From Nitrospirota bacterium (GTDB lineage Bacteria; Nitrospirota; UBA9217), in contig CAWIYV010000004.1 of NCBI GenBank assembly GCA_963840455.1, positions 42,770 through 74,769 of the forward strand: 32,000 nt of DNA, written 5' to 3'. Each line of letters opens with the position of its first letter. Position 1 is the first letter of the stretch. The notes below the pieces were generated by a model. The model was given only the letters and a program-made list of their open reading frames with translations, had not been told where the DNA came from and did not search any database. A program made the position numbers and the translations under genes. This document shows, in pieces, positions 3,788 through 27,176 of the stretch.

Positions 3788-4414
3788 CTATTTCTCCGGA
3801 CCTGCTGAAATTGCGCTGAGCTTTTTCTTCTTATGGTTCCGCACATAGAGCGCGATAATGACCGCACTCACGATAACAACACCGATCACTGCCTGATGGG
3901 AATACTGCATGATCAGTTCCCGGTTCGCGCCGATGAAGTAGCCGATGAAAGTAAGAATGGTGACCCAGATGCCTGCTCCCGCGAGCGTGTAGAGTGAGAA
4001 CTTGACGTGGTTCATGCCTGCCAGCCCGGCCGGGAGCGAGATAAGATGCCGCACAACAGGCAGGAGCCTGCCGATGAAGGTCGATATCTCGCCATGGTCA
4101 CGGAAATACCGCTCCACCTTGGCGAATTTCTCTTCCGTGATCCAGACGTACTTACCGTACTTGAGCAGCAGCGGCCTGCCGAGATAGTGCGCCGCATAGT
4201 AGTTCGCGTAGGCGCCCACCAGGCTTCCCAGCGTGCCGCACAGAATGGCGACGAGCGCGTTCATCTGGCCTTGCTGGGCAAGGTATCCCGCCGGCGGCAT
4301 CACCAATTCGCTCGGGATGGGGATGATGGAGCTCTCCATGGCCATGAGCAGGAAGATGCCCGGGTAGCCCAGGGCGCCGATGGTCAGGAGCAGCCAGTCG
4401 ATCAGTGCATGCAT
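3788..4414 (-). CDS. DedA family inner-membrane protein
   Basis: GYPGIFLLMAMESSIIPIPSELVMPPAGYL and the FIGRLLPVVRHLISLPAG motif are typical of DedA/SNARE-associated proteins. Multiple TM helices. Confidence 0.9.
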   Translation of the reverse strand: MHALIDWLLLTIGALGYPGIFLLMAMESSIIPIPSELVMPPAGYLAQQGQMNALVAILCGTLGSLVGAYANYYAAHYLGRPLLLKYGKYVWITEEKFAKVERYFRDHGEISTFIGRLLPVVRHLISLPAGLAGMNHVKFSLYTLAGAGIWVTILTFIGYFIGANRELIMQYSHQAVIGVVIVSAVIIALYVRNHKKKKLSAISAGPEK

Positions 4415-4457
4415 TGTTACACGCTCCCCTTGACAGATTTTTGGAAAACCGTATTTT

Positions 4458-4543
4458 CACCGCAGAGTTCGCTGAGACCGCTGAGTTTTGACGCTTTTTA
4501 AATATCAGATCTATTTCTCTGCGTGCTCTGCGCTCTCAGCGGT
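4458..4543. repeat. 9-nt-periodic inverted-repeat element (canonical copy R1)
   Basis: Left arm: CGCAGAGTT CGCTGAGAC CGCTGAG (4461-4485), preceded by CAC. Right arm: CTCTGCGTG CTCTGCGCT CTCAGCGGT (4517-4543). An AT-rich spacer separates the arms. It lies between the era stop and the dedA start. Confidence 0.75.
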
Positions 4544-4587
4544 ATATCTCGTTCCATCTTAACGTCTTACGCCTTATGCTGTTTCTA

Positions 4588-4622
4588 TTCCGTAATCTAA
4601 AATCTGCAATCCGCAATGCTGC
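4588..4622. repeat. Heptad tandem array (ATCYGCA-like x5) abutting the era stop codon
   Basis: TTCCGTA ATCTAAA ATCTGCA ATCCGCA ATGCTGC. The last unit ends 1 nt before the era stop codon (4623-4625). Confidence 0.65.
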
Positions 4623-5531
4623 CTATTCTTCTTCAATGATCCCGACGTTCCTGAGCATCCGGTTGTCGTCACGCCAGCCCTTCTTCACCTTCACCCAGAG
4701 CTGGAGGAACACCTTCACTCCCAGGAGCTTTTCCGCATCCAGCCGCGCCCGGGTGCCGATCTCCTTCAGCAGGGCGCCGTTCTTGCCGATGACGATCCCC
4801 TTCTGCGAATCGCGGTCCACGAAGATGGTGGCATCGATGCGCGTCAGGCCCGGCTCCTCCTTCACCTGGTCGATCATCACTGCCGTGGAGTACGGGATCT
4901 CCTCCTTGGTGAGCTCGAAGATCTTTTCGCGGATGATCTCGGAGACAACGAACCGCTCCGGCTGGTCCGTCAGCTGGTCGTCGGGAAAGTACTTTGGCCC
5001 CTTGGGCATCCGCTTCAGGAGGGCGTCCACAAGGCCGCCCAGGTCCTGCTTCAGGGCCGATACGGGGATGATCTCGGCAAAGGAGTAGAGCGTGCTGTAT
5101 TCCTGCATGAGCGGCAGGAGCCGCTCCTTGTTGATGAGGTCCACCTTGTTGATGATCAGCAGGACCGGGGTCCTGACCTTTGCAAGGGAGTCGATGATGA
5201 AGCGGTCACCGCCTCCCGGCTTCTCCGTGGCCTCCACGAGCAGCATGATGACGTCCACTTCGCTGTACGTGCCAAGCGCCATGTTCACCATGATCTCGTT
5301 CATCTTATGCAGCGGTTTGTGGATGCCCGGCGTGTCGATAAACACCAGCTGGGCGTCCGGCCGGCTCAGGATGCCGCGAATGCGATTCCGCGTGGTCTGG
5401 GGTTTGTCGGAAATGATGGATATTTTCTCGCCCAGGAGGCAGTTCATGAGCGTGGACTTGCCCACGTTCGGCCTTCCGATGATAGCGATGAAGCCGGATC
5501 GGAAATCCCTCTCGTTCTTCGCCTCAGTCAT
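4623..5531 (-). CDS. era: GTPase Era
   Basis: MTEAKNERDFRSGFIAIIGRPNVGKSTLMN (G1), DTPGIH (G3), NKVD (G4), and a C-terminal KH domain (VIGKNGALLKEIG). The listed ORF extends to 5711, but that N-terminal 60 aa is Cys/His-rich junk. The ATG at 5531 gives a canonical 302-aa Era. Confidence 0.9.
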   Translation of the reverse strand: MTEAKNERDFRSGFIAIIGRPNVGKSTLMNCLLGEKISIISDKPQTTRNRIRGILSRPDAQLVFIDTPGIHKPLHKMNEIMVNMALGTYSEVDVIMLLVEATEKPGGGDRFIIDSLAKVRTPVLLIINKVDLINKERLLPLMQEYSTLYSFAEIIPVSALKQDLGGLVDALLKRMPKGPKYFPDDQLTDQPERFVVSEIIREKIFELTKEEIPYSTAVMIDQVKEEPGLTRIDATIFVDRDSQKGIVIGKNGALLKEIGTRARLDAEKLLGVKVFLQLWVKVKKGWRDDNRMLRNVGIIEEE

Positions 5532-6026
5532 GGCGGTAGCATACCCGAAAGAGGCATGCGACGCAAGAAAAAGCGGATCTCTTGTTGGGCAACACGGGGG
5601 GAGGTGGGAAAAGCAACTGCAACGACCTTGGTTATGGCAGTTCCAAAAGCCCCTGCAGCCCGTGAGCACTGACGATGCGTAGGCATGCGTCACAGAAGCA
5701 TGGCAAATCACCGCGTCGTTTCCAGCACGCGCGTCAGCGGAAGTGCTGAGGATAGGACAGAGCGGACAAGAAAACCGCGGACAAACTGCATGCCTGCAGC
5801 GCAGTGCGAATGGGCTGCAGAAAAAAGGAGATTTGCTTTTTTGGGCAGCCCGGGCTGCTGGAAAGGCAAAGGCTTACGTCTTTACCCAAACTCCGCAGGT
5901 CTCACCGGAGCGGACCTACACCCTGCCTTGCGATGCCGCGGGTGCAAGAGATTGAAGCTCTCTGCTCCTGGTCTTCTCCATGTCTCAATGGTCATCCTCT
6001 CTTCTGCCCGACATTTTAAATATCAT

Positions 6027-11549: not shown

Positions 11550-11647
11550 ATTGCAAAGGTATGCAGACAATGATCGACTGTTAGTATACCATAAAAACAG
11601 GTGTCCGCCTCTTACTTTCCAGGGTAATCCCGCAGAACACTGAAGAG

Positions 11648-11781
11648 TTAGCGCTCGCTCCTGGATTTAAGCTCCCTGCTGCAAGAGGCATGGAGCTTCG
11701 ATCCTCAGAGAACTCTGTTATTCTAATCGCTCGCTGGCCCCGCGGCAGACTGCGGGGAATGCGCTCGCTCCTGGATTTAAG
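11648..11781 (+). repeat. Modular hairpin-rich repeat, locus A (M3-M1-M2-M3)
   Basis: A perfect 21-bp direct repeat GCGCTCGCTCCTGGATTTAAG occurs at 11651-11671 and 11761-11781. It flanks M1 (11670-11707, AGCTCCCTGC...TTCGATCCTCA) and M2 (11720-11757, ATTCTAATCGCTCGCTGGCCCCGCGGCAGACTGCGGGG). The same modules recur at 15823-15981. Confidence 0.65.
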
Positions 11782-11848
11782 GTGAATTGTTGACTGCGAT
11801 GGCAGCTTCCCCGGGGCCATCGACCATCGCAGTACCGGTAAATATGTT

Positions 11849-13295: not shown

Positions 13296-14776
13296 CTTGT
13301 TTGTTCTTCGTTCTTGGGCAAGGGAAGGGTGATCGTGAAGGTCGCTCCCCTGCCCGGCGCGCTCTCCACGCCGAGTTCGCCTTTGTGCTGCTCCACGATC
13401 CGTTGCGTAATGGACAGACCCAGCCCCGTGCCCTGATGGCGCGTGGTGAAGAAGGGGATGAATATCCTGCCCAGGTTCTCGGGCGTAATGCCATCCCCGG
13501 AGTCCGTGAAGACGATCTTGATCGCGCCGGGAATGTCGCCTTCACGCTCCTCGGCCCGCGTTTCGACCGAGAATTTTCCGCCCTCCGGCATGGCCTTGAT
13601 GGCGTTCAGGGAGATGTTCAAAAGGGCCTGCTGCATCAGGTCCGGATCAAGGACCAGCCACGGCAGGCCGACCGTGAGCTTCCGCTCGACAGTGATGCCG
13701 TGTTTGGCGAACTGCGGCGAAAGGAAGTCGATAAGCTTCCCGATGAGCTCGTTGATGTCCACGAGAGTCATCTTGGGTTCGGGCGGCCGGGCGAAGGAGA
13801 GGAGGTTCCGGACCGCCTTGTCCATGCGCTCCACCTGGGACAGCACCTCGTCCAATATGCCACGTTTCGGGTCACCGGCCGCGATGTCCTTCTTCAGCAC
13901 CTGGATCACACCGGCAATGCCCGCCAACGGGTTTTTGATCTCATGGGCGATGCCGGCCGCCATCTCGCCGATGGATGCCAGACGGTCCGCCCGTTTCATC
14001 TGCTCGTAATGGTATCGCTCCACCCGGCGCCGGGCACGCTCCAGCTTGGACAGGAGCGAGTTGAACGCCTCGCCGAGCCTCCCGATGTCGTCGGCGCTCC
14101 TTACCTGCACCCGCGCCTCCAGCCCCCGCTCGGCGCGCTCCATGGTAGCAATGAGGTCCTGGATGGGGTCCGTAACGAACCGGGTCAGGAAGAGCCCGAG
14201 GAGGAGCGCCAGCGTCGCGGTGATGCCTAAGGCCCAGAGTATCATGGTCTTGCTGAGCTCGCCTACCTTTTCCTGCGTCTGGACCATGGACACGTCCACG
14301 GCCAGGATGCCGTTCAGCTTCGTCGAGGACCCATGGCAGCGAACGCATTGTTCCGTGTTCGCGATCGGGAAGAGCACGGAAAACACGCCTTCGTCCCGCC
14401 GCTTGATGGGCTTCTTGAACTCGCCCTCCAGGAACCATTTCTGGGTGGCGGCATCGACCTTCCGGCCGATCAGCCACGGTTTCGATGACTTCAGGATCAC
14501 GCCGCTGGGGCTGAAGATCTTCAATTCCCGGATATTCTGGTAGGTGCCGACGGCTTCGAGGACGTGCTGGACCTCCTTGCTCATGCCGTCCAGCATGGCG
14601 TTCGCGAGGCTCTGCTCGATGGTATTGGAGATGATGAGGACGTTGTCCTCGAGTGCGGACTCCATCTGTGCACGCTGGTAGCCGATGTTGATCCACGTAC
14701 CCGTACCGATGATGACTGCCAGGATGGCGGACACCGAGATGATGATCTTGCTCTTGAGGCTCGAGACGAATCTCAC
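13286..14776 (-). CDS. Sensor histidine kinase (TM, periplasmic domain with CxxCH, TM, HAMP, HisKA, HATPase_c)
   Basis: H-box [16 protein letters not shown]-box [13 protein letters not shown]-boxes DSGDGI and GTGLGLSI, and a HAMP after the second TM. The periplasmic segment contains CVRCH, a c-type haem attachment motif. The GTG start at 14776 overlaps the pyrD TGA (GTGA). Confidence 0.9.
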
Positions 14777-15708: not shown

Positions 15709-15822
15709 AGACGCGCTTCCGTTGATACGGACACTGTTGGCGGCAAGGATCATGAAGAGGAAAAAAGATATGCTGTCTTACGGGCCCAGCCTGCGCTCTT
15801 ACCCTTGTACCGCCTCGTGTTG

Positions 15823-15981
15823 AAGCTCCCTGCAGTAAGCTGCAGGGAATCTTCGGTCCTCAAGGTAGTAATAGATCATTCTAATCGCTCGCTAACCCGC
15901 TGCACTCGCGGGTCCACTCGTAAACGCTGGGGGCAGGACCCCGCAGCAAGCTGCGTGGTTAGCGTTCGTTCCTGGATTCAC
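15823..15981 (+). repeat. Modular hairpin-rich repeat, locus B (M1-M2-insert-M3)
   Basis: M1 at 15823-15862 (AGCTCCCTGCAG-TAAG-CTGCAGGGAATCTTCGGTCCTCA). M2 at 15878-15913 (ATTCTAATCGCTCGCTAACCCGCTGCACTCGCGGGT). M3 at 15959-15981 (TTAGCGTTCGTTCCTGGATTCAC). Module order and orientation match locus A. It lies in the pyrK-pyrD spacer. Confidence 0.65.
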
Positions 15982-16021
15982 CTTTCGACCAGGAACAGAG
16001 AATACGTTACGCCATAAAGTT

Positions 16022-16087
16022 CACCGGGGACACCGAGGAAAAAATCGGCAAGCATGTACGCACATTTTTTTGTGGTCTCTGTGGTAA
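16022..16087. repeat. Degenerate periodic inverted-repeat element (R9)
   Basis: Left arm CACCGGGGA CACCGAGGA (16022-16039). Right arm TGTGGTCT CTGTGGTAA (16071-16087). It is nested inside the GCAAGCAT (16048-16055) / ATGCTTGC (16091-16098) pairing, directly after the pyrK stop. Confidence 0.4.
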
Positions 16088-16097
16088 AAGATGCTTG

Positions 16098-20707: not shown

Positions 20708-20790
20708 CGCAGAGGACGCCGAGTACGCGGAGAAGTGCCATGCCAATTCAAGGCTGTTCTTACCTCTGCGACCTCCGCGATCTCTGCGGT
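20708..20790. repeat. 9-nt-periodic inverted-repeat element (canonical copy R2)
   Basis: Left arm CGCAGAGGA CGCCGAGTA CGCGGAGAA (20708-20734). Right arm CTCTGCGAC CTCCGCGAT CTCTGCGGT (20764-20790), followed by GAAA. It lies between the radical SAM stop and the carB start. Confidence 0.8.
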
Positions 20791-20799
20791 GAAATTTAA

Positions 20800-21705
20800 T
20801 CACTCGAAGTTCTGCACCCAGCCGTTCTTCAATCCATACTTCATCTTGATGTCGTAGGCCTCGTCGTATTCTTGTTCACTGATCCGGCGGTTGATCTCGG
20901 GATGTTCCGCGGACTTGAACGCCGGAAAGTACTGCGACATGAGGCTGATGTACACATCTGCGGAGATCTCCGTTGCCAGGAATTTCATCACGGCTTCGGT
21001 CCCTGCCACACCATGGGGAAGCACCAGGTGCCTGACCAGGAGTCCGCGCTGCGCGATCCCGTGCTCATCCATGACCAGATTCCCTACCTGCCGGTACATC
21101 TCCTTGACCGCTGCCCGGTTCACCTCGACATAGTGCGGGGCCACGGAGTATCGCACGGCGGCCGCATTATCAGAGTACCGCATGTCCGGCATGTAGATAT
21201 CCACGATGCCGTCGAGCAGCTTGAGCATCTCCACGGAATCGTATCCGCTCGTGTTGTACACGATGGGCAGGTCGAAGCCCCGCTCCCGCGCGATGCCCAC
21301 CGCCTTCAGGATCTGGGGGACATAGTGCGTCGGGGTCACAAGGTTCAGGTTGTGGCAGCCCTGCTCCTGCATCCAGAGCATCTGGCAGGCCAGTTCCCCC
21401 GGCGTCCGCTCGGTGCCGTGTCCCATCTGGCTGATGGGATAGTTCTGGCAGTAGATGCAGCGGAGATTGCAGTTCGTGAAAAAGATCGTGCCCGAGCCTT
21501 TGATGCCCGAGAGCGGCGGTTCCTCGCCGTGGTGCGGGCTGACGCTCGCGATGGCCGGGTTGAGCCCCGAGCGGCAGAAGCCCAGCCTGCTGTCCTCGAG
21601 CCGGTTCACCCCGCACTCCCGGGGGCAGACAGTGCATTCCTCGAGATGACGGTACGCCGCCTCGATCCGAAGTTCCAGTTCTTCTTTTGAGATAACAACT
21701 GCCAC
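20800..21705 (-). CDS. Radical SAM protein, PflX-like (COG1313, PFL-activase homologue of unknown function)
   Basis: CTVCPRECGVNR N-terminal Cys motif. CNLRCIYCQN radical SAM CX3CX2C motif. The listed ORF start at 21756 is a TTG inside a repeat element. The GTG at 21705, preceded by GAAGAAGG, is preferred, but the start remains uncertain. Confidence 0.85.
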   Translation of the reverse strand: MAVVISKEELELRIEAAYRHLEECTVCPRECGVNRLEDSRLGFCRSGLNPAIASVSPHHGEEPPLSGIKGSGTIFFTNCNLRCIYCQNYPISQMGHGTERTPGELACQMLWMQEQGCHNLNLVTPTHYVPQILKAVGIARERGFDLPIVYNTSGYDSVEMLKLLDGIVDIYMPDMRYSDNAAAVRYSVAPHYVEVNRAAVKEMYRQVGNLVMDEHGIAQRGLLVRHLVLPHGVAGTEAVMKFLATEISADVYISLMSQYFPAFKSAEHPEINRRISEQEYDEAYDIKMKYGLKNGWVQNFE

Positions 21706-21723
21706 GGCCGAGCCTTCTTCAGC

Positions 21724-21798
21724 CACCGAGGTCACCGGGGTCACCGAGAAATTCAACGCGAGTGATTTTCTCTGTGTCCTCTGAGCGCTCTCTGCGGC
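21724..21798. repeat. Periodic inverted-repeat element (R3), left arm overlapping the longest radical SAM ORF
   Basis: Left arm CACCGAGGT CACCGGGGT CACCGAGAA (21724-21750). Right arm CTCTGTGTC CTCTGAGCG (ct) CTCTGCGGC (21770-21798). The spacer is 19 nt. Confidence 0.6.
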
Positions 21799-21807
21799 AA
21801 GGAGAAT

Positions 21808-22926
21808 TTATTTATGTTTTTCCATCATGTCCACAAAACGCTGGAACAGGTACCTGCTGTCGTGCGGTCCCGGCGACGACTCGGGGTGGTACTGGACGGA
21901 GAAGGCCGGCAGGGTCTTGTGCTGGATGCCCTCGCACGTCCTGTCGTTCAGGTTCATGTGGGTCATCTCCACGTGTTCCTTCACCGACTCCATGTCCACG
22001 GCGAAGCCATGGTTCTCGGCTGCGATCTCGACCTTGCGCGTCGTCAGGTCCATGATCGGCTGATTCCCGCCGCGGTGGCCGAACTTGAGCTTGTAGGTCC
22101 TCCCGCCGAGCGCCAGGCCCAGGAGCTGCTGGCCCAGGCAGATGCCGAAGATCGGTTTCTTGCCGAGGATCTTCTTGATGTTCTCGATGGCATAGGTCAC
22201 CGGCTCAGGATCTCCCGGACCATTCGAGAGAAACACCCCGTCTGGCTGCATGGCGAGCACCTCTTCCGCCGGCATGGTGGCAGGCACTACGGTGACATCG
22301 CAGCCCGCGCTCGTGAGCAGCCGCAGGATGTTCCGCTTGATGCCATAGTCGTAGGCCACGACCTTGTACCGCGACAGGGACTTCTTTCCGTAGCCGGTCT
22401 CGAGATCCCAGATGCCTTCGTCCCAGGCGTAAGGTTTTTTGCATGTAACGTCCTTTGCAAGGTCGAGTCCGTTCATCTTCGGCAGTTTCTTTGCTTTGGC
22501 GAATAAGCTCCCCGGGTCCAGGTCCTTCGTCGAGATGATCCCTGGCTGGGCGCCCACGTCGCGGATATGGCGCGTCAGTGCCCGCGTGTCGATGCCCTGG
22601 ATTCCTGCGATCTGATGCGCCTTCAGATAGGCGTCGAGCGATCGCTTCATCCGCCAGTTGCTCGGGAAGTCCAGGTACTCCTTCACGATGAACCCTTCCA
22701 CCTGTGGTTTCCCGGACTCCACGTCCTCGTCGTTCGTGCCATAGTTCCCGATCTGGGGATAGGTCATGGTGACGATCTGGCCCTTGTACGACGGGTCCGT
22801 CAGGATCTCCTGGTATCCCGTCATGCTGGTGTTGAAGACCACCTCGCCCGTGGCCTCGCCTTCCGCCCCGAAGGAGGAGCCTTCGAACACCATGCCGTCT
22901 GCCAATGCAAGGATCGCTTTTTTCAT
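21808..22926 (-). CDS. carA: Carbamoyl-phosphate synthase small (glutaminase) subunit
   Basis: [40 protein letters not shown]. Class I amidotransferase motifs [12 protein letters not shown] and QYHPES. 372 aa. Confidence 0.95.
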
Positions 22927-22944
22927 ATTCCACCTTCCCGCCTA

Positions 22945-23003
22945 CCCCCCTGTCATCCCCCTTGGCAAGGGGGGAACGAGGGGGGTGCAATCCGCAATCA
23001 TTT
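22945..23003. repeat. Nested C-run/G-run hairpin followed by a short ATCCGCA heptad stub, upstream of carA
   Basis: Sequence: CCCCCC tgtcat CCCCCTT ggc AAGGGGG g aacga GGGGGG (22945-22985). It is followed by GTGCA ATCCGCA ATCATTT (22986-23003). Confidence 0.6.
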
Positions 23004-23025
23004 TATATTGATAAACTTATTTTAC

Positions 23026-23109
23026 CGCTGAGCTCGCGGAGAACGCAGAGTTAATTCGTTATCTTGAATCAAGAATATATTTCTCAGCGCCCTCTGCGTC
23101 CTCTGCGGT
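23026..23109. repeat. 9-nt-periodic inverted-repeat element (canonical copy R4)
   Basis: Left arm CGCTGAGCT CGCGGAGAA CGCAGAGTT (23026-23052). Right arm CTCAGCGCC CTCTGCGTC CTCTGCGGT (23083-23109), followed by GAAA. The spacer contains the palindrome CTTGAATCAAG. Confidence 0.8.
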
Positions 23110-23116
23110 GAAAGAA

Positions 23117-24013
23117 CTAGAATCTGTCTCGTATCTTGCCGTTCACATCCACTACTTCTCCGCTCACCTTTTCGCCGTCAACTGTCACATATACATAATG
23201 ATGGAATCCGCCGTCCTCGTCCTTCGCGTACAGCGGCGCTCCCCCGCCTCCGGCGATGATGTGGGGGATCCCGTCCACTGTTTTCCTGAGATACAGGTGC
23301 TCATGCCCCGCGAATACGGCCGTGACCTGGTGTTTCACAAAGAGCGCCTGCAGCCGGTCCCGGTCCTCTTTGTACCGGTCGAGGCTGTTCCCGTGATGCT
23401 TCCCTTTTCCCTTCTCGGGATAGAGCGGGTGATGGACAAAGACGAATGTATGCTTCTGCTTCGATGCGGCCAGGACCTGCTCCAGCCATTTGAACTGTTC
23501 GCCGGTGATCCGTTTATCCTCTCCCTTGATATAGGAATCGAGCACAACGAACAGCGAGTTCCCCCCGACGAAAGAGTAGTAGAGCTCGTTCCCGGGCAGG
23601 TCCACCTGCGCCTTGTAGATATCCTCGCTCCCCGCGACCTCCCCATGGATGTCATGGTTCCCCACCGTCAGGAAATAGGGAACAGCCACGCTCTTCGACA
23701 ACTCCCAGAACCGCTTCCAGTGTTCGATATTGCCCGGCTTGTCGATCTGGTCGCCGGTATTTACGATGAAGGCCGGCTTTCGTTCAAGCGCCGCAGCAAG
23801 CACCTTTTGATAGACCGCATCGCATGCCGGGTCGCCCGCGCGGTTGTCACCGAACACGACAAAGGAGAACTTCGAAGAAAGCTTCTCATGCGAGGCGAGC
23901 TTCTGCTGAAGCAGCTGATCCTGTGCCGCAATGCCATTCGTGATCGTTGCAAAAAAGATCAGAAGCGGTAGTAACGGTTTTATAATCCGCAATCCACGAT
24001 CCGAAATCCGCAA
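23117..24013 (-). CDS. Secreted calcineurin-like metallophosphoesterase
   Basis: Motifs FGDNRAGD, NTGDQIDKPG, VGNHD, VHHPLYP and AGHEHLY. N-terminal signal peptide ...IIKPLLPLLIFFATITNGIAAQ. The listed start is a TTG at 24013. A second TTG at 23992 is equally plausible, and both lie inside the heptad array. Confidence 0.85.
   Translation of the reverse strand: MRISDRGLRIIKPLLPLLIFFATITNGIAAQDQLLQQKLASHEKLSSKFSFVVFGDNRAGDPACDAVYQKVLAAALERKPAFIVNTGDQIDKPGNIEHWKRFWELSKSVAVPYFLTVGNHDIHGEVAGSEDIYKAQVDLPGNELYYSFVGGNSLFVVLDSYIKGEDKRITGEQFKWLEQVLAASKQKHTFVFVHHPLYPEKGKGKHHGNSLDRYKEDRDRLQALFVKHQVTAVFAGHEHLYLRKTVDGIPHIIAGGGGAPLYAKDEDGGFHHYVYVTVDGEKVSGEVVDVNGKIRDRF
23985..24012. repeat. Heptad tandem array ATCCGCA ATCCACG ATCCGAA ATCCGCA abutting the pyrC stop codon
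   Basis: Four exact-phase 7-nt units end 1 nt before the pyrC stop codon (24014-24016). Confidence 0.7.
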
Positions 24014-25279
24014 TTAGATTCTTCCTTCCACAATCGTCCGCACGGCCTTCCCCTTCAATTTCCAGCCGTCGAACGGCGTGTTCTTCGACTTCGACAGGAA
24101 CTGCGAAGCATTCACGGTCCAGTCCAGGTCCGGGTCGATGATGGTGATGTCCGCTTCGGCTCCGACCGACAACATCCCGCCGCCGCTCTTGATGATCCGT
24201 GCAGGCGTCGTGCTCATACGGGTTATGAGGTCTGCCATCGAAAGGATGCCCTCCTGCACCAGTTTGAACGACAACCCGACGCTTGTCTCGAGCCCCACGA
24301 TACCGAAGGGCGCGGCGTCGAACTCCACCGACTTCTCGTCCAGGGCGTGGGGCGCGTGGTCCGTGGCGATCACGTCGAGCGTTCCGTCCTTGAGACCCTG
24401 CCTGATCGCCGCCACGTCATCGGCGGTCCGGAGCGGCGGGTTCATCTTTGCCATGGTATGGTACCCTCTCACTGCCTCGTCGGTGAGCGTAAAATAGTGC
24501 GGGCATGTCTCTGCGGTCACCTTGACGCCGCGCTGCTTTGCCTCGCGGATCATCCGGACGGAGCCTGCTGTGCTCACATGGCAGATATGGAGCCTCGCGC
24601 CGGTCAGTTCGGCAAGCTCGATGTCCCGGGCCGTCATCACGTCCTCGGCCGCGTTCGGAATGCCCCGGAGGCCGAGCTCCGTGGACACGAACCCTTCGTT
24701 CATAACGCCCTGTGCCGCGAGGCTTGCGTCCTCACAGTGCGAAATGACCGCGATGTCGAATATCGTAGAATATTCCATGGCTCGGCGCATGACCGCTGCC
24801 CTCATGACCGGTTTGCCGTCGTCGGAGATGCCTTTGCAGCCAGCCTCGTGCAGCTCGCCCATTTCGGCGAGTTCCTCGCCCTTTGAGCCTTTGGTGATGG
24901 CCCCGATGGGAAAGACCCGCGCCAAGGCCTTACTCGCCGCCTGGGAGAGGATGAACTCCGTCACCGACCGGGAATCGTTCACCGGGTTCGTGTTCGGCAT
25001 GCAGCAGACCGCCGTGAACCCGCCCGCCTTTGCCGCGGCAGTTCCGGTGGCAATGGTCTCCTTGTATTCGTATCCCGGCTCGCGAAGGTGGACGTGCATG
25101 TCGATCAAGCCCGGGACCACGAACTTGCCGCTCGCATCGATGATCTCTGCACCATTCGCTGGGAGTGAGCCCGGTTTGCCGAGCTTCGCGATCTTCCCGT
25201 CAGCGATGAGGAGATCGAGCTTCCCCTCCACCTTGTTCACGGGATCGATGATGTTGCCGTTCTTGATCAGTATATTCAT
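24014..25279 (-). CDS. pyrC: Dihydroorotase
   Basis: [13 protein letters not shown]..., [10 protein letters not shown] metal-binding motif, [20 protein letters not shown]. The ATG at 25279 (AAGGTG upstream) is preferred over the listed 25306. Confidence 0.93.
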
Positions 25280-25296
25280 AAACACACCTTTTTCAC

Positions 25297-25379
25297 CGCA
25301 GAGCACGCAGAGGTCGCAGAGTTTGGACCGTTAAGATCGGACCTTTCTCTTTCTCAGCGTTCTCAGCGATCTCCGCGGT
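25297..25379. repeat. 9-nt-periodic inverted-repeat element (canonical copy R5)
   Basis: Left arm CGCAGAGCA CGCAGAGGT CGCAGAGTT (25297-25323), preceded by TTTCAC. Right arm CTCAGCGTT CTCAGCGAT CTCCGCGGT (25353-25379), followed by AAAT. It lies between the pyrB stop and the pyrC start. Confidence 0.8.
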
Positions 25380-25385
25380 AAATAA

Positions 25386-26315
25386 TTAGTTTTCTGCTTT
25401 TGTCCCGCCCGACAGCAGGAACATCACCGCCATGCGGACCGCAACGCCGTTCGTCACCTGGTCGAGGATGACCGAATGATGGTCCGCCACGTCGGAAGCG
25501 ATCTCCACGCCGCGGTTCATGGGACCGGGATGCATCACGATAGCGTTCTGTGCCGCCTGCTCAAGCCGCGCCCGGTTGAGGCCGAACAGCCGCGCGTATT
25601 CCCGCACGCCGGGAAAGAGCCCCGCGGCCTGGCGCTCGAGCTGGAGCCTGAGCGTCATGATGACGTCGGCGCCCCTGACCGCTTCGTCCATGTCGTAGAA
25701 GACCGGGACCCCCAGCTTCTCGATGCCCCTTGGAAGCATGGTCGGCGGGCCGCATACGCGGACCTTCGCGCCCATGGTCGTGAGCCCGTAGATGTTCGAA
25801 CGGGCGACGCGGCTGTGCAGGATGTCTCCCACAATGGCCACGGTGACCCCCTCGAGCCTGCCGTGCTTCTCGCGTATGGTGAACATGTCGAGGAGGGCCT
25901 GGGTCGGATGCTCGTGGAACCCGTCGCCGGCGTTGATCACCGAGCTCTTAAGCCGCTGCGCAAGGTACTCGGGCGCACCCGAGCAGGAATGGCGCACGAT
26001 GATCATGTCGCTCTTCATGGCCTCGATGTTCCGCGCGGTGTCGAGGAGCGTCTCGCCTTTCACCACGCTGGAGGTCGAGGTCGAGATGTTGATCACATCT
26101 GCCGAGAGCCGCTTGCCGGCCAGCTCGAAGGACGTCCGGGTCCTCGTGCTCGCCTCGTAGAAGAGGTTGATGACCGTCTTGCCGCGGAGCGCGGGCACCT
26201 TCTTGATGTCCCGCTCCGATACGTCCTTGAACGTGGCGGCGGTGTCGAGGATGAGCTTGATCTCCTCCGCGGCCATGCCTTTGATCCCGAGCAGGTCCTT
26301 TGAGCTGAGCGCCAT
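25386..26315 (-). CDS. pyrB: Aspartate carbamoyltransferase catalytic subunit
   Basis: [20 protein letters not shown]-containing segment, [21 protein letters not shown]. 309 aa. Confidence 0.95.
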
Positions 26316-26345
26316 GGCTTTCCTCTCACATCAACGGCAGTCTGC

Positions 26346-26427
26346 CACAGAGGACACCGAGCACATCATAGGCTGAAGAAAGCCATAAGATCCGATGTCG
26401 TTCGGCGACCTCGATGCTCTCTGTGGC
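26346..26427. repeat. Periodic inverted-repeat element, diverged copy (R6)
   Basis: Left arm CACAGAGGA CACCGAGCA CATCATAGG (26346-26372). Right arm TTCGGCGAC CTCGATGCT CTCTGTGGC (26401-26427). The 9-nt phase is retained. It lies between the pyrR stop and the pyrB start. Confidence 0.6.
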
Positions 26428-26467
26428 GAATTGCTTCGTTCTTTCCTTCCGCATTCCGAACCCGATG

Positions 26468-27031: not shown

Positions 27032-27072
27032 ACACAAAAAAACCTTCTCCCCCGAACATGGGGAAGAAGGTT
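27032..27072 (-). terminator. Intrinsic terminator (attenuator) in the pyrR leader
   Basis: The minus-strand RNA is AACCUUCUUCCCC-AUGUUC-GGGGGAGAAGGUU followed by UUUUUGUGU. The stem is 13 bp with one G-U pair. It ends about 20 nt upstream of the pyrR start. Confidence 0.75.
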
Positions 27073-27117
27073 GGCGTGTTCGTGATAAGACGTTCTCGTC
27101 TCGTTATACTTTTTCAT

Positions 27118-27144
27118 GTCCTGCCCTTTCTGGCCTCACAGGAC
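27118..27144 (-). promoter_or_regulatory. Candidate PyrR-binding stem-loop (anti-antiterminator)
   Basis: The RNA is GUCCUG-UGAG-GCC-AGAAA-GGC-CAGGAC. It has a lower stem, a purine-rich 5' bulge, an upper stem and an AGAAA loop. CCAGAAAGG resembles the CCAGAGAGG core of the Bacillus PyrR binding loops. Confidence 0.55.
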
Positions 27145-27176
27145 CAGACTTAAAGAGGATCGATTGATGCGGCGTT

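Follow-up and report, generated by a model that had tools for sequence, protein, structure and literature searches.

Eukaryotic foldback (FB) elements carry inverted terminal repeats that are themselves built from short tandem sub-repeats of variable copy number, placed on both sides of a variable middle; they are hundreds to thousands of base pairs long, and some of them contain transposase genes. Among bacterial repeats, a repetitive extragenic palindrome (REP) is recognized as a hairpin of 20-40 nt whose foot bears, on its 5' side, the tetranucleotide GTAG or CGTC (PMC3733652; PMC6006769), the clusters formed by MITEs (miniature transposable elements with inverted repeats) have been reported as essentially genus-specific (PMC11602168), and tandem heptamer repeats lie between genes as TAACTGA in Beggiatoaceae (PMC4679880) and as STRR in cyanobacteria. 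Here we consider a stretch of 32,000 nucleotides from a Nitrospirota bacterium (contig CAWIYV010000004.1, positions 42,770 to 74,769; in the following, the window), in which the junctions of a pyr/car gene cluster are occupied by small palindromes with arms of regularly phased heptamers. We propose, with a probability of about 0.6, that these palindromes are copies of a dispersed, non-autonomous foldback repeat of undescribed architecture, which has invaded the junctions of the operon and is tolerated there.

The cluster lies on the minus strand and its genes come in the order pyrR, pyrB, pyrC, a metallophosphoesterase gene (mpe), carA, a radical-SAM gene (rSAM), carB, greA, pyrK and pyrD, as given by Pfam and by synteny in relatives. 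An earlier inspection of the letters of the window (the sequence-only reading) had reported five inverted-repeat elements in five of the six gaps between pyrR and carB. All five were located where it had placed them and are confirmed as genuine copies of a family of small palindromic repeats with phased units; the occupancy of five gaps in six is likewise correct, the gene calls being confirmed by Pfam, and the sixth gap, between pyrC and the phosphoesterase gene, holds only a short tandem array of the ATTGCGG type. A search of the window with a two-unit pattern gives 18 matches, when 0.68 are expected and the largest number in a shuffled sequence is 3. In total there are seven copies, four canonical and three degenerate with CAC/GTG variants of the units, so that the earlier count was right in its five members and had missed two, a canonical copy outside the operon and a degenerate one after pyrK. 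The copies are as follows, in coordinates of the window and without assigned strand:

4454..4546 (arms 4461-4485 and 4517-4541), no strand: canonical copy in the era/DedA gap, 31-nt spacer
16020..16089, no strand: degenerate copy with 2+2 CAC/GTG units in the pyrK/pyrD gap, TTCAC-CGGGGA-CACCGAG ... CTCTGTG-GTAAAA, immediately after the pyrK stop codon
20702..20794 (arms 20708-20732 and 20764-20788), no strand: canonical copy in the rSAM/carB gap, 31-nt spacer, beginning in the mRNA sense 5 nt past the rSAM stop codon
21720..21802, no strand: degenerate copy in the carA/rSAM gap, units CACCGAG / CTCTGNG, with a 2-nt indel in one unit
23020..23113 (heptamers 23026-23107), no strand: canonical copy in the mpe/carA gap, 32-nt spacer
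25290..25382 (heptamers 25297-25377), no strand: canonical copy in the pyrB/pyrC gap, 31-nt spacer
26342..26430, no strand: degenerate copy in the pyrR/pyrB gap, CACAGAG, CATCGAG, CGCCGAA ... CTCGGTG, CTCTGTG

The genes that flank the copy at 4461-4541 lie outside the operon:

3788-4414, minus strand: DedA/VTT gene
4623-5711, minus strand: era

When every CGCNGAG and CTCNGCG in the window is mapped exactly, four clusters appear, each laid out as +++--- with start-to-start spacings of 9, 9, 38/39, 9 and 9. Three of these clusters, at 20708, 23026 and 25297, are the canonical copies of the sequence-only reading. Those it had given at 21724-21798 and 26346-26427 also exist, in a degenerate form with CACNGAG/CTCNGTG units; of the spacer range of about 19-31 nt that had been given, the canonical copies have 31-32 nt and the shorter values belong to degenerate copies only. 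Since the degenerate 2+2 copy also sits after pyrK, every non-zero junction from pyrR to pyrD is occupied, in comparison with a single one among the window's other gaps, of which there are about 13, and the pyr/car copies begin 3-15 nt past the upstream stop codon.

A canonical copy reads TTYAC-(CGCNGAGNN)x3, followed by a spacer of 31-32 nt and by (NNCTCNGCG)x3-GTRAA. The core of the heptamer is C-R-C-N-R-A-G, which in the window takes the form CGCNGAG, with three units per arm at a phase of 9 nt; across the family an arm is a tandem array of 2-5 units at a phase of 8-10 nt. A foot of 4-5 nt (TTYAC...GTRAA) closes the palindrome, and the loop is variable across the family, with other small palindromes nested inside it. 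The two arms have a fixed order, in that the GAG-core (purine-core) arm is 5' and the CTC-core arm 3' throughout the two-armed copies: a GAG-core arm has a CTC-core partner within 250 nt downstream in 67 cases out of 139, and upstream in 7 of 139.

How the arms are conserved can be seen from an alignment of 37 two-armed copies, all distinct from one another, in which the spacer measures 13-162 nt. In each arm, 18 core columns are invariant or nearly so, in part as a consequence of how the set was selected. The columns of the foot covary (CG, AU, UG, UA and GC), and in the linkers standard pairing, whether Watson-Crick or G.U, occurs in only about half of the copies, with no covariation; the linkers of the left arm are rich in purines, those of the right arm in pyrimidines. 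Because the linkers pair in only about half of the copies and do so without covariation, the heptamer core, comprising six positions of each 9-mer, is by the evidence of the alignment conserved as a sequence and not merely as a helix. The central N behaves differently in the window and in the family. In the four canonical window copies it forms a Watson-Crick pair in only 1 case of 12, a G.T pair in 2 and a mismatch in 9, and for this reason the earlier picture of a ladder of 3-bp steps with mismatched N fits the window. It does not fit the family as a whole, where the three positions form a standard pair in 31, 23 and 26 of the 37 copies, the outermost being the one with 31. RNA of either strand is predicted to form a ladder hairpin with a folding energy of -30 to -43 kcal/mol (z from -2.6 to -6.4), as belongs to a symmetric DNA palindrome. 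On both strands a T-run precedes each copy and an A-run follows it, which is the opposite of the order in a terminator; when the copies were examined as intrinsic terminators, no U-tract was found after the hairpins and no element was flagged.

The family extends far beyond the window. A scan with the three-unit arm over one genome per species gave at least 120 loci; among the matches listed, chance Ala-Glu coding repeats in Actinobacteria were set aside, and the remainder show the same architecture in many phyla. Two-armed copies measure 63 to about 220 nt and are known from ten phyla or more, namely Acidobacteriota, Planctomycetota, Verrucomicrobiota, Nitrospirota, Chloroflexota, Thermodesulfobacteriota, Pseudomonadota, Gemmatimonadota, Elusimicrobiota and Bacteroidota. 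Cultured carriers, found by Blast against plasmid records, include Gemmatirosa, Bacteroides and cyanobacteria; among them are Gemmatirosa kalamazoonensis KBS708, Bacteroides finegoldii/ovatus and Oscillatoria nigro-viridis PCC 7112. In Bacteroides finegoldii a clean 3+3 copy is located after a terminator. Plasmid 1 of Gemmatirosa kalamazoonensis has 15 elements in 250 kb, with 3-5 units at a phase of 8-10 nt and with CGCAGAG, CGCGGAG and CACGGAG subfamilies, each with its own foot. On this plasmid, elements of the CACGGAG type recurrently sit precisely inside the spacer of elements of the CGCAGAG type, with 3-5 units per arm, and the nested composites (loci L327 and L329-L332) have these positions:

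NZ_CP007129.1, 220697-220876: nested composite
NZ_CP007129.1, 279709-279862: nested composite
NZ_CP007129.1, 381534-381707: nested composite
NZ_CP007129.1, 389450-389672: nested composite

A third palindrome (CTGGGGAT...ATCCCCAG) nests within other Gemmatirosa copies.

On viral contigs there are complete copies as well as nested ones, and also solo arms. One of them (L283, IMG/VR 3300024287_000138) has six solo (CTCTGCGTT)x3-GTTAAT arms over 13 kb, all in one orientation and at least one of them about 10 nt past a stop codon; at two further loci (L221 and L241) solo GAG-core, that is left, arms stand just 5' of start codons. Because solo arms occur at these three loci, the arms can exist as independent modules. 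Intergenic copies are found in gene contexts of all orientations, convergent, divergent and unrelated, and a stop codon is usually no more than 25 nt away. The sequence-only reading had itself reckoned that a catalogued REP or MITE family with an ordinary, random genome-wide scatter between genes would speak against its view of the elements, and what is observed largely corresponds to such a scatter, over gaps of every orientation in at least ten phyla and on viral contigs.

The same junctions were compared in 87 related pyr/car loci with CarA identities of 59-95%. The orthologous junctions vary from a 4-nt overlap (-4) to 278 nt, and from this range it follows that a tight or overlapping arrangement of the genes is likely to be the ancestral state. 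What these junctions hold in relatives varies: it can be a member of the heptamer family, a different small palindrome, a one-armed array of heptamers, or no element at all. To exemplify, consider L124, a relative with 98% PyrC identity, which lacks two of the window copies: its mpe/carA junction is 41 nt long instead of 190 nt, and its pyrB/pyrC junction has a different palindrome. The mpe/carA copy is present in L121 and absent from L124, L127, L128 and L122, where the empty site is T(A/G)ATTGCGGATT. In L128 and L122 the empty site is legible as T(A/G)ATTGCGGATTGCACC, and in the window 118 nt are inserted before an intact T(A/G)ATTGCGGATTGCACC. The pyrB/pyrC gap of relatives has 0-2 right-arm units or a different palindrome, and their pyrR/pyrB gap has unrelated palindromes or is only 3 nt long. 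The comparison of orthologous loci, which had been suggested as a check on the idea that the elements segment the transcript, thus goes against that idea, since the junctions of close relatives carry other palindromes or nothing.

Between the window and L121, four-fold degenerate sites differ by about 10% and the orthologous element by 6%, to which come a 23-nt insertion in the first unit and one change that breaks the motif; by this measure the orthologous element appears to evolve roughly as neutral DNA. The 23-nt insertion (GCCAGAAGTAGGCGCCTCTAGGC; L121, 12176-12198) has a similar string in another junction of L122 (about 14390-14415) and may be a very small mobile sequence. With a relaxed two-arm criterion there are 4 copies in the 32 kb of the window and 9 in about 900 kb of relatives, which means that there is an unusually dense burst of the CGC subfamily in the source genome. 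The family is dispersed across phyla and cultured genomes, and at orthologous junctions its copies come and go within short times.

With these properties the elements may be set against the described systems. With the REP, BIME and REPIN sequences of Enterobacteria, which are mobilized by RAYT, they have in common that they are short, high-copy extragenic palindromes, mostly situated just 3' of genes and inside operons, and that they are co-transcribed, mosaic or nested, polymorphic between strains, and better conserved in the arms than in the spacer. REPs are extragenic, of high copy number and mostly placed 3' of genes, between co-directional or convergent ORFs, and the elements agree with this in number and placement (7 copies in 32 kb of the window, 15 in the 250 kb of Gemmatirosa, as a rule at most 25 nt from a stop codon), but their feet read TTYAC...GTRAA with neither GTAG nor CGTC, and single arms hold no hairpin of their own, in support of the earlier remark that these are not clean REP hairpins. 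Unlike REPs, they have arms of tandem phased heptamers, and their likeness in sequence spans phyla, whereas REPs are lineage-specific. The class 3 Y1 proteins of Acidobacteria and Planctomycetes go with a REP-like sequence that has a CnGA foot, GAGCCGCGACCGTxAGGGAGCG (PMC6006769); this sequence differs from the heptamer element, and a link to these RAYT-like proteins was rejected. The likeness to MITEs such as Correia/NEMIS, RUP, ERIC and Nezha lies in a length of 70-200 bp, terminal inverted repeats, a non-coding and intergenic nature, polymorphism in presence or absence, and bursts within single genomes. Arms and feet together form terminal inverted repeats within the 50-800 bp that define a MITE, and presence or absence is polymorphic between the window and L124, L127, L128, L122 and L121. 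The elements differ from MITEs in that neither a target-site duplication nor a parent insertion sequence (IS) was found in the loci examined, that the inverted repeats are built from tandem sub-repeats, and that the same architecture and the same core come back in ten phyla or more. As in FB elements, there are arms of tandem sub-repeats and a variable middle, and the whole folds back, by which no homology is implied. The STRR and TAACTGA repeats are similarly short phased intergenic units near start or stop codons with a patchy spread across phyla and no evident vector, but they are contiguous direct repeats, whereas the heptamer element has variable linkers and an inverted partner arm.

The attC sites of integrons are also imperfect palindromes that are conserved in structure, have a variable centre, and follow the stop codons of co-oriented genes. 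The elements could on these grounds be attC-like recombination sites marking gene cassettes, by which mpe and rSAM were inserted; both genes are lineage-specific inserts in the operon, and the ends of some copies, TTAAC...GTTAA, are similar to the two cores of attC, RYYYAAC (R'') and GTTRRRY (R'). We consider this very improbable. Most feet are TTCAC or TTTAC and not AAC (those in the window are TTTTCAC, TTTTAAC and TTTTACC), the arms are made of three phased heptamers each in place of two integrase boxes, the genes belong to a conserved core operon with the same order with and without elements, copies also lie between ordinary housekeeping genes, and there is no integrase in the window; identity with attC was therefore rejected. 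The two inserted genes are:

20800-21708, minus strand: radical-SAM gene, lineage-specific insert in the pyr/car operon
23117-24013, minus strand: metallophosphoesterase gene (mpe), lineage-specific insert in the pyr/car operon

The radical-SAM gene of the window, with its start at 21708, is 78-80% identical to that of relatives. No radical-SAM match is found in relatives with a CarA identity of at most 72% (loci L147-L174), and in several of these (L150, L152, L168 and L171) carB comes directly after carA.

Searches for a name gave the same answer as the sequence-only reading, which had recognized no named family. In Rfam 15 there is no match at the gathering score in the window and nothing meaningful at the elements in the window or at the Bacteroides copy, and literature searches by sequence string and by concept returned only unrelated primers and generic papers on REPs and MITEs. 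The repeat family is apparently uncatalogued.

The elements are best read as selfish or neutral repeat DNA, and not as a regulator specific to this operon. Copies would have entered the junctions of an operon with ancestrally overlapping or tightly spaced genes, and they would be tolerated there because no terminator U-tract follows them, because the downstream ribosome-binding sites lie free outside the stem, and because the ladder hairpins in the polycistronic mRNA would be stable but harmless. Effects on the pyr/car transcript, such as protection of the 3' ends of upstream segments or loss of the coupling that goes with overlap, would then be a by-product. For the family to spread, the phased heptamers would have to be read by some activity in trans, or the copies would have to recombine with one another.

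Several observations weigh against this. No mobilizing or otherwise shared gene was found near copies in the window or in genome loci and viral loci that amount to about 1 Mb each. There is no target-site duplication, in that the window copies share no flanking k-mer and the comparison of filled and empty mpe/carA sites shows only TAG...TGA. In the four canonical copies of the window none of the 144 motif positions is altered, and yet the spacers are hardly related to one another, which is odd for simple copy-and-paste; since three decayed copies also exist, the intact motifs are in part an effect of ascertainment. The carA/rSAM gap keeps a palindrome of the CRCNRAG type in the majority of those relatives whose CarA identity is 81% or more. 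The purine-left and pyrimidine-right linkers that do not covary, together with the one-orientation solo arms of the viral contig, fit a binding array that is read as sequence. Finally, when the copies are read in the sense of the upstream gene, G.T is commoner than A.C, with 43 against 20, which is suggestive. As to the fourth of these points, the carA/rSAM palindromes are homogenized within each element (CACGGAG, CACGAAG, CGCAAAG or CGCGGAG, with a matching right arm), and their persistence can reflect either repeated colonization by different subfamilies or concerted evolution in place.

Vectors of the known kinds were also looked for. No transposase was found near the copies in the loci and the window examined, and a neighbouring transposase was rejected as an explanation. 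No gene for RAYT (TnpA-REP) appeared in the window or in the flanks of about 240 loci, and long-range pairs of arms, inspected for a related autonomous IS, enclose housekeeping or phage genes and not transposases.

The linkers, the solo arms and the fixed order of the arms bear on another explanation, according to which a conserved protein, acting in trans and binding to DNA or RNA, recognizes the arms as phased arrays. It would read the three heptamers of an arm one after the other, two such arrays would be brought together by the palindrome, and the elements would serve as operators or organizers with a cellular or phage function. This explanation is favoured by the fixation of six positions in nine with N and NN free and the linkers without covariation, by the strict chirality, by the occurrence of the same core in at least ten phyla, and by solo arms that appear as modules of their own in L283, L221 and L241. 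Against this, no candidate protein and no gene family common to the surroundings of the copies emerged; the phase (8-10 nt), the number of units (2-5) and the core itself (CGCAGAG, CACGGAG, CGCAAAG, CACGAAG) vary, even within one genome; orthologous copies decay; and close relatives without elements show no sign of a replacement. The phased binding array, which the sequence-only reading had put on a par with a MITE, is therefore retained as a minority view that we regard as unlikely.

The excess of G.U in the sense orientation, on the other hand, would suit a role in RNA. The sequence-only reading had supposed that the elements segment the pyr/car transcript, and in its general form this says that they are cis-acting hairpins of the mRNA which set the stability, the processing or the translational coupling of its segments. 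The predicted RNA hairpins are stable, the copies start 3-15 nt past the upstream stop codon, all non-zero junctions between pyrR and pyrD are occupied while other gaps of the window are nearly all empty of copies, and the carA/rSAM junction has such a palindrome in most relatives. In predicted folding the sense strand is better than the antisense strand in 59 of 78 junctions and the antisense strand in 17, but shuffled sequences give an equal bias (-4.46 vs -3.91 kcal/mol). Because the bias is the same after shuffling, the difference between sense and antisense is one of base composition, and selection on folding that is specific to RNA was rejected. The G.T excess was likewise rejected as a sign of RNA function, being explicable by a transcription-linked bias for C-to-T and A-to-G and by a sense strand rich in G+T. 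In a more specific variant, the Shine-Dalgarno sequence would be sequestered in the base of the stem and opened by the terminating ribosome; this was rejected because the downstream sites are not part of the hairpins, and relatives that have no element still possess the AAAAAGG in front of pyrC. That the elements mimic a PyrR operator was rejected as well, since a search with RF00515 at the elements gives no match even at E<=5 and the same gaps hold unrelated sequences in relatives. With the family present in convergent, divergent and unrelated contexts of many phyla, with orthologous junctions that are empty or hold different elements, with no strand-specific folding signal once composition is controlled, with free Shine-Dalgarno sites and with no Rfam match, a segmenting role is unsupported, and we judge a cis-acting RNA function improbable. 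The sole PyrR site is the leader at 27034-27160.

The features upstream of pyrR are the following:

27205-27177, minus strand: promoter-like site TTGACA-17-TATTGT, 5' of the pyrR leader
27034-27160, minus strand: PyrR leader RF00515, found by the Rfam covariance model with 53.8 bits, the gathering score being 54
27072-27041, minus strand: attenuator terminator of the PyrR leader, the sole strong terminator in the cluster

Since the Rfam model finds a single PyrR site in the cluster, that in the leader, the pyr/car operon appears to be attenuated by PyrR from one leader; and since the promoter-like site and the leader with its attenuator stand upstream of pyrR, the genes from pyrR to pyrD are probably one operon. 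A weak promoter-like site (25296-25269, minus strand, 9/12) is formed by the GTGAAA foot of the pyrB/pyrC copy and a downstream TATACT, and element ends could occasionally create internal promoters in this way.

Other small repeats accompany the elements. One-armed heptamer arrays of the ATTGCGG and GTGCGGA types lie in the window at about 23990-24013, 22988-23001, 4600-4618 and 26440-26462. They begin at or overlap stop codons (T[AG]ATTGCGGATT...), are very common at the 3' ends of genes in the lineage (relatives L121-L145), and resemble the STRR/TAACTGA class. Just 5' of carA, at 22941-22987, there is a hairpin of G/C runs (in the mRNA sense CACCCCCCTCGTTCCCCCCTTGCCAAGGGGGGATGACAGGGGGGTAGG), which is conserved in L121, L122 and L128 and absent from L124 and L127, and which could be another mobile palindrome or a signal specific to carA. 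The palindrome GTCATTCCCGCGnnnGCGGGAATCC is found both in junctions of Nitrospirota relatives and on a viral contig (the pyrB/pyrC gap of L122, the pyrR/pyrB gap of L136, L139, and L221). A second dispersed repeat, of about 165 nt, occurs in the window at 11629-11790 and 15820-15985 with a block identity of 72-90%; its shared blocks are CCCGCAG...GCGCTCGCTCCTGGATTTAAG, ATTCTAATCGCTCGCT and AAGCTCCCTGC, and it has no match in Rfam.

For the biology of this operon, the conservative reading means that the copies are dispersed repeat DNA, and not regulatory signals or small genes, and the case would show how an invasion by repeats can pry apart a biosynthetic operon whose genes ancestrally overlapped. 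A further idea, which we put forward only tentatively and hold to be rather doubtful, is that the phased C-R-C-N-R-A-G arrays are the recognition code of a putative, widespread nucleic-acid enzyme or binding protein that builds, moves or uses these foldback modules across ten or more bacterial phyla and their phages. Such a reader of the heptamers would be part of a partnership of the REP-RAYT kind, but of a new sort, and it would explain at the same time the fixed chirality, the free N and NN, the variable number of units, the hypervariable loops and the solo arms. If a dedicated factor exists, the elements would constitute a second REP-like system with a host range far wider than that of REP/RAYT, and it would be directly testable in tractable carriers, namely Bacteroides, Gemmatirosa and the PCC cyanobacteria.

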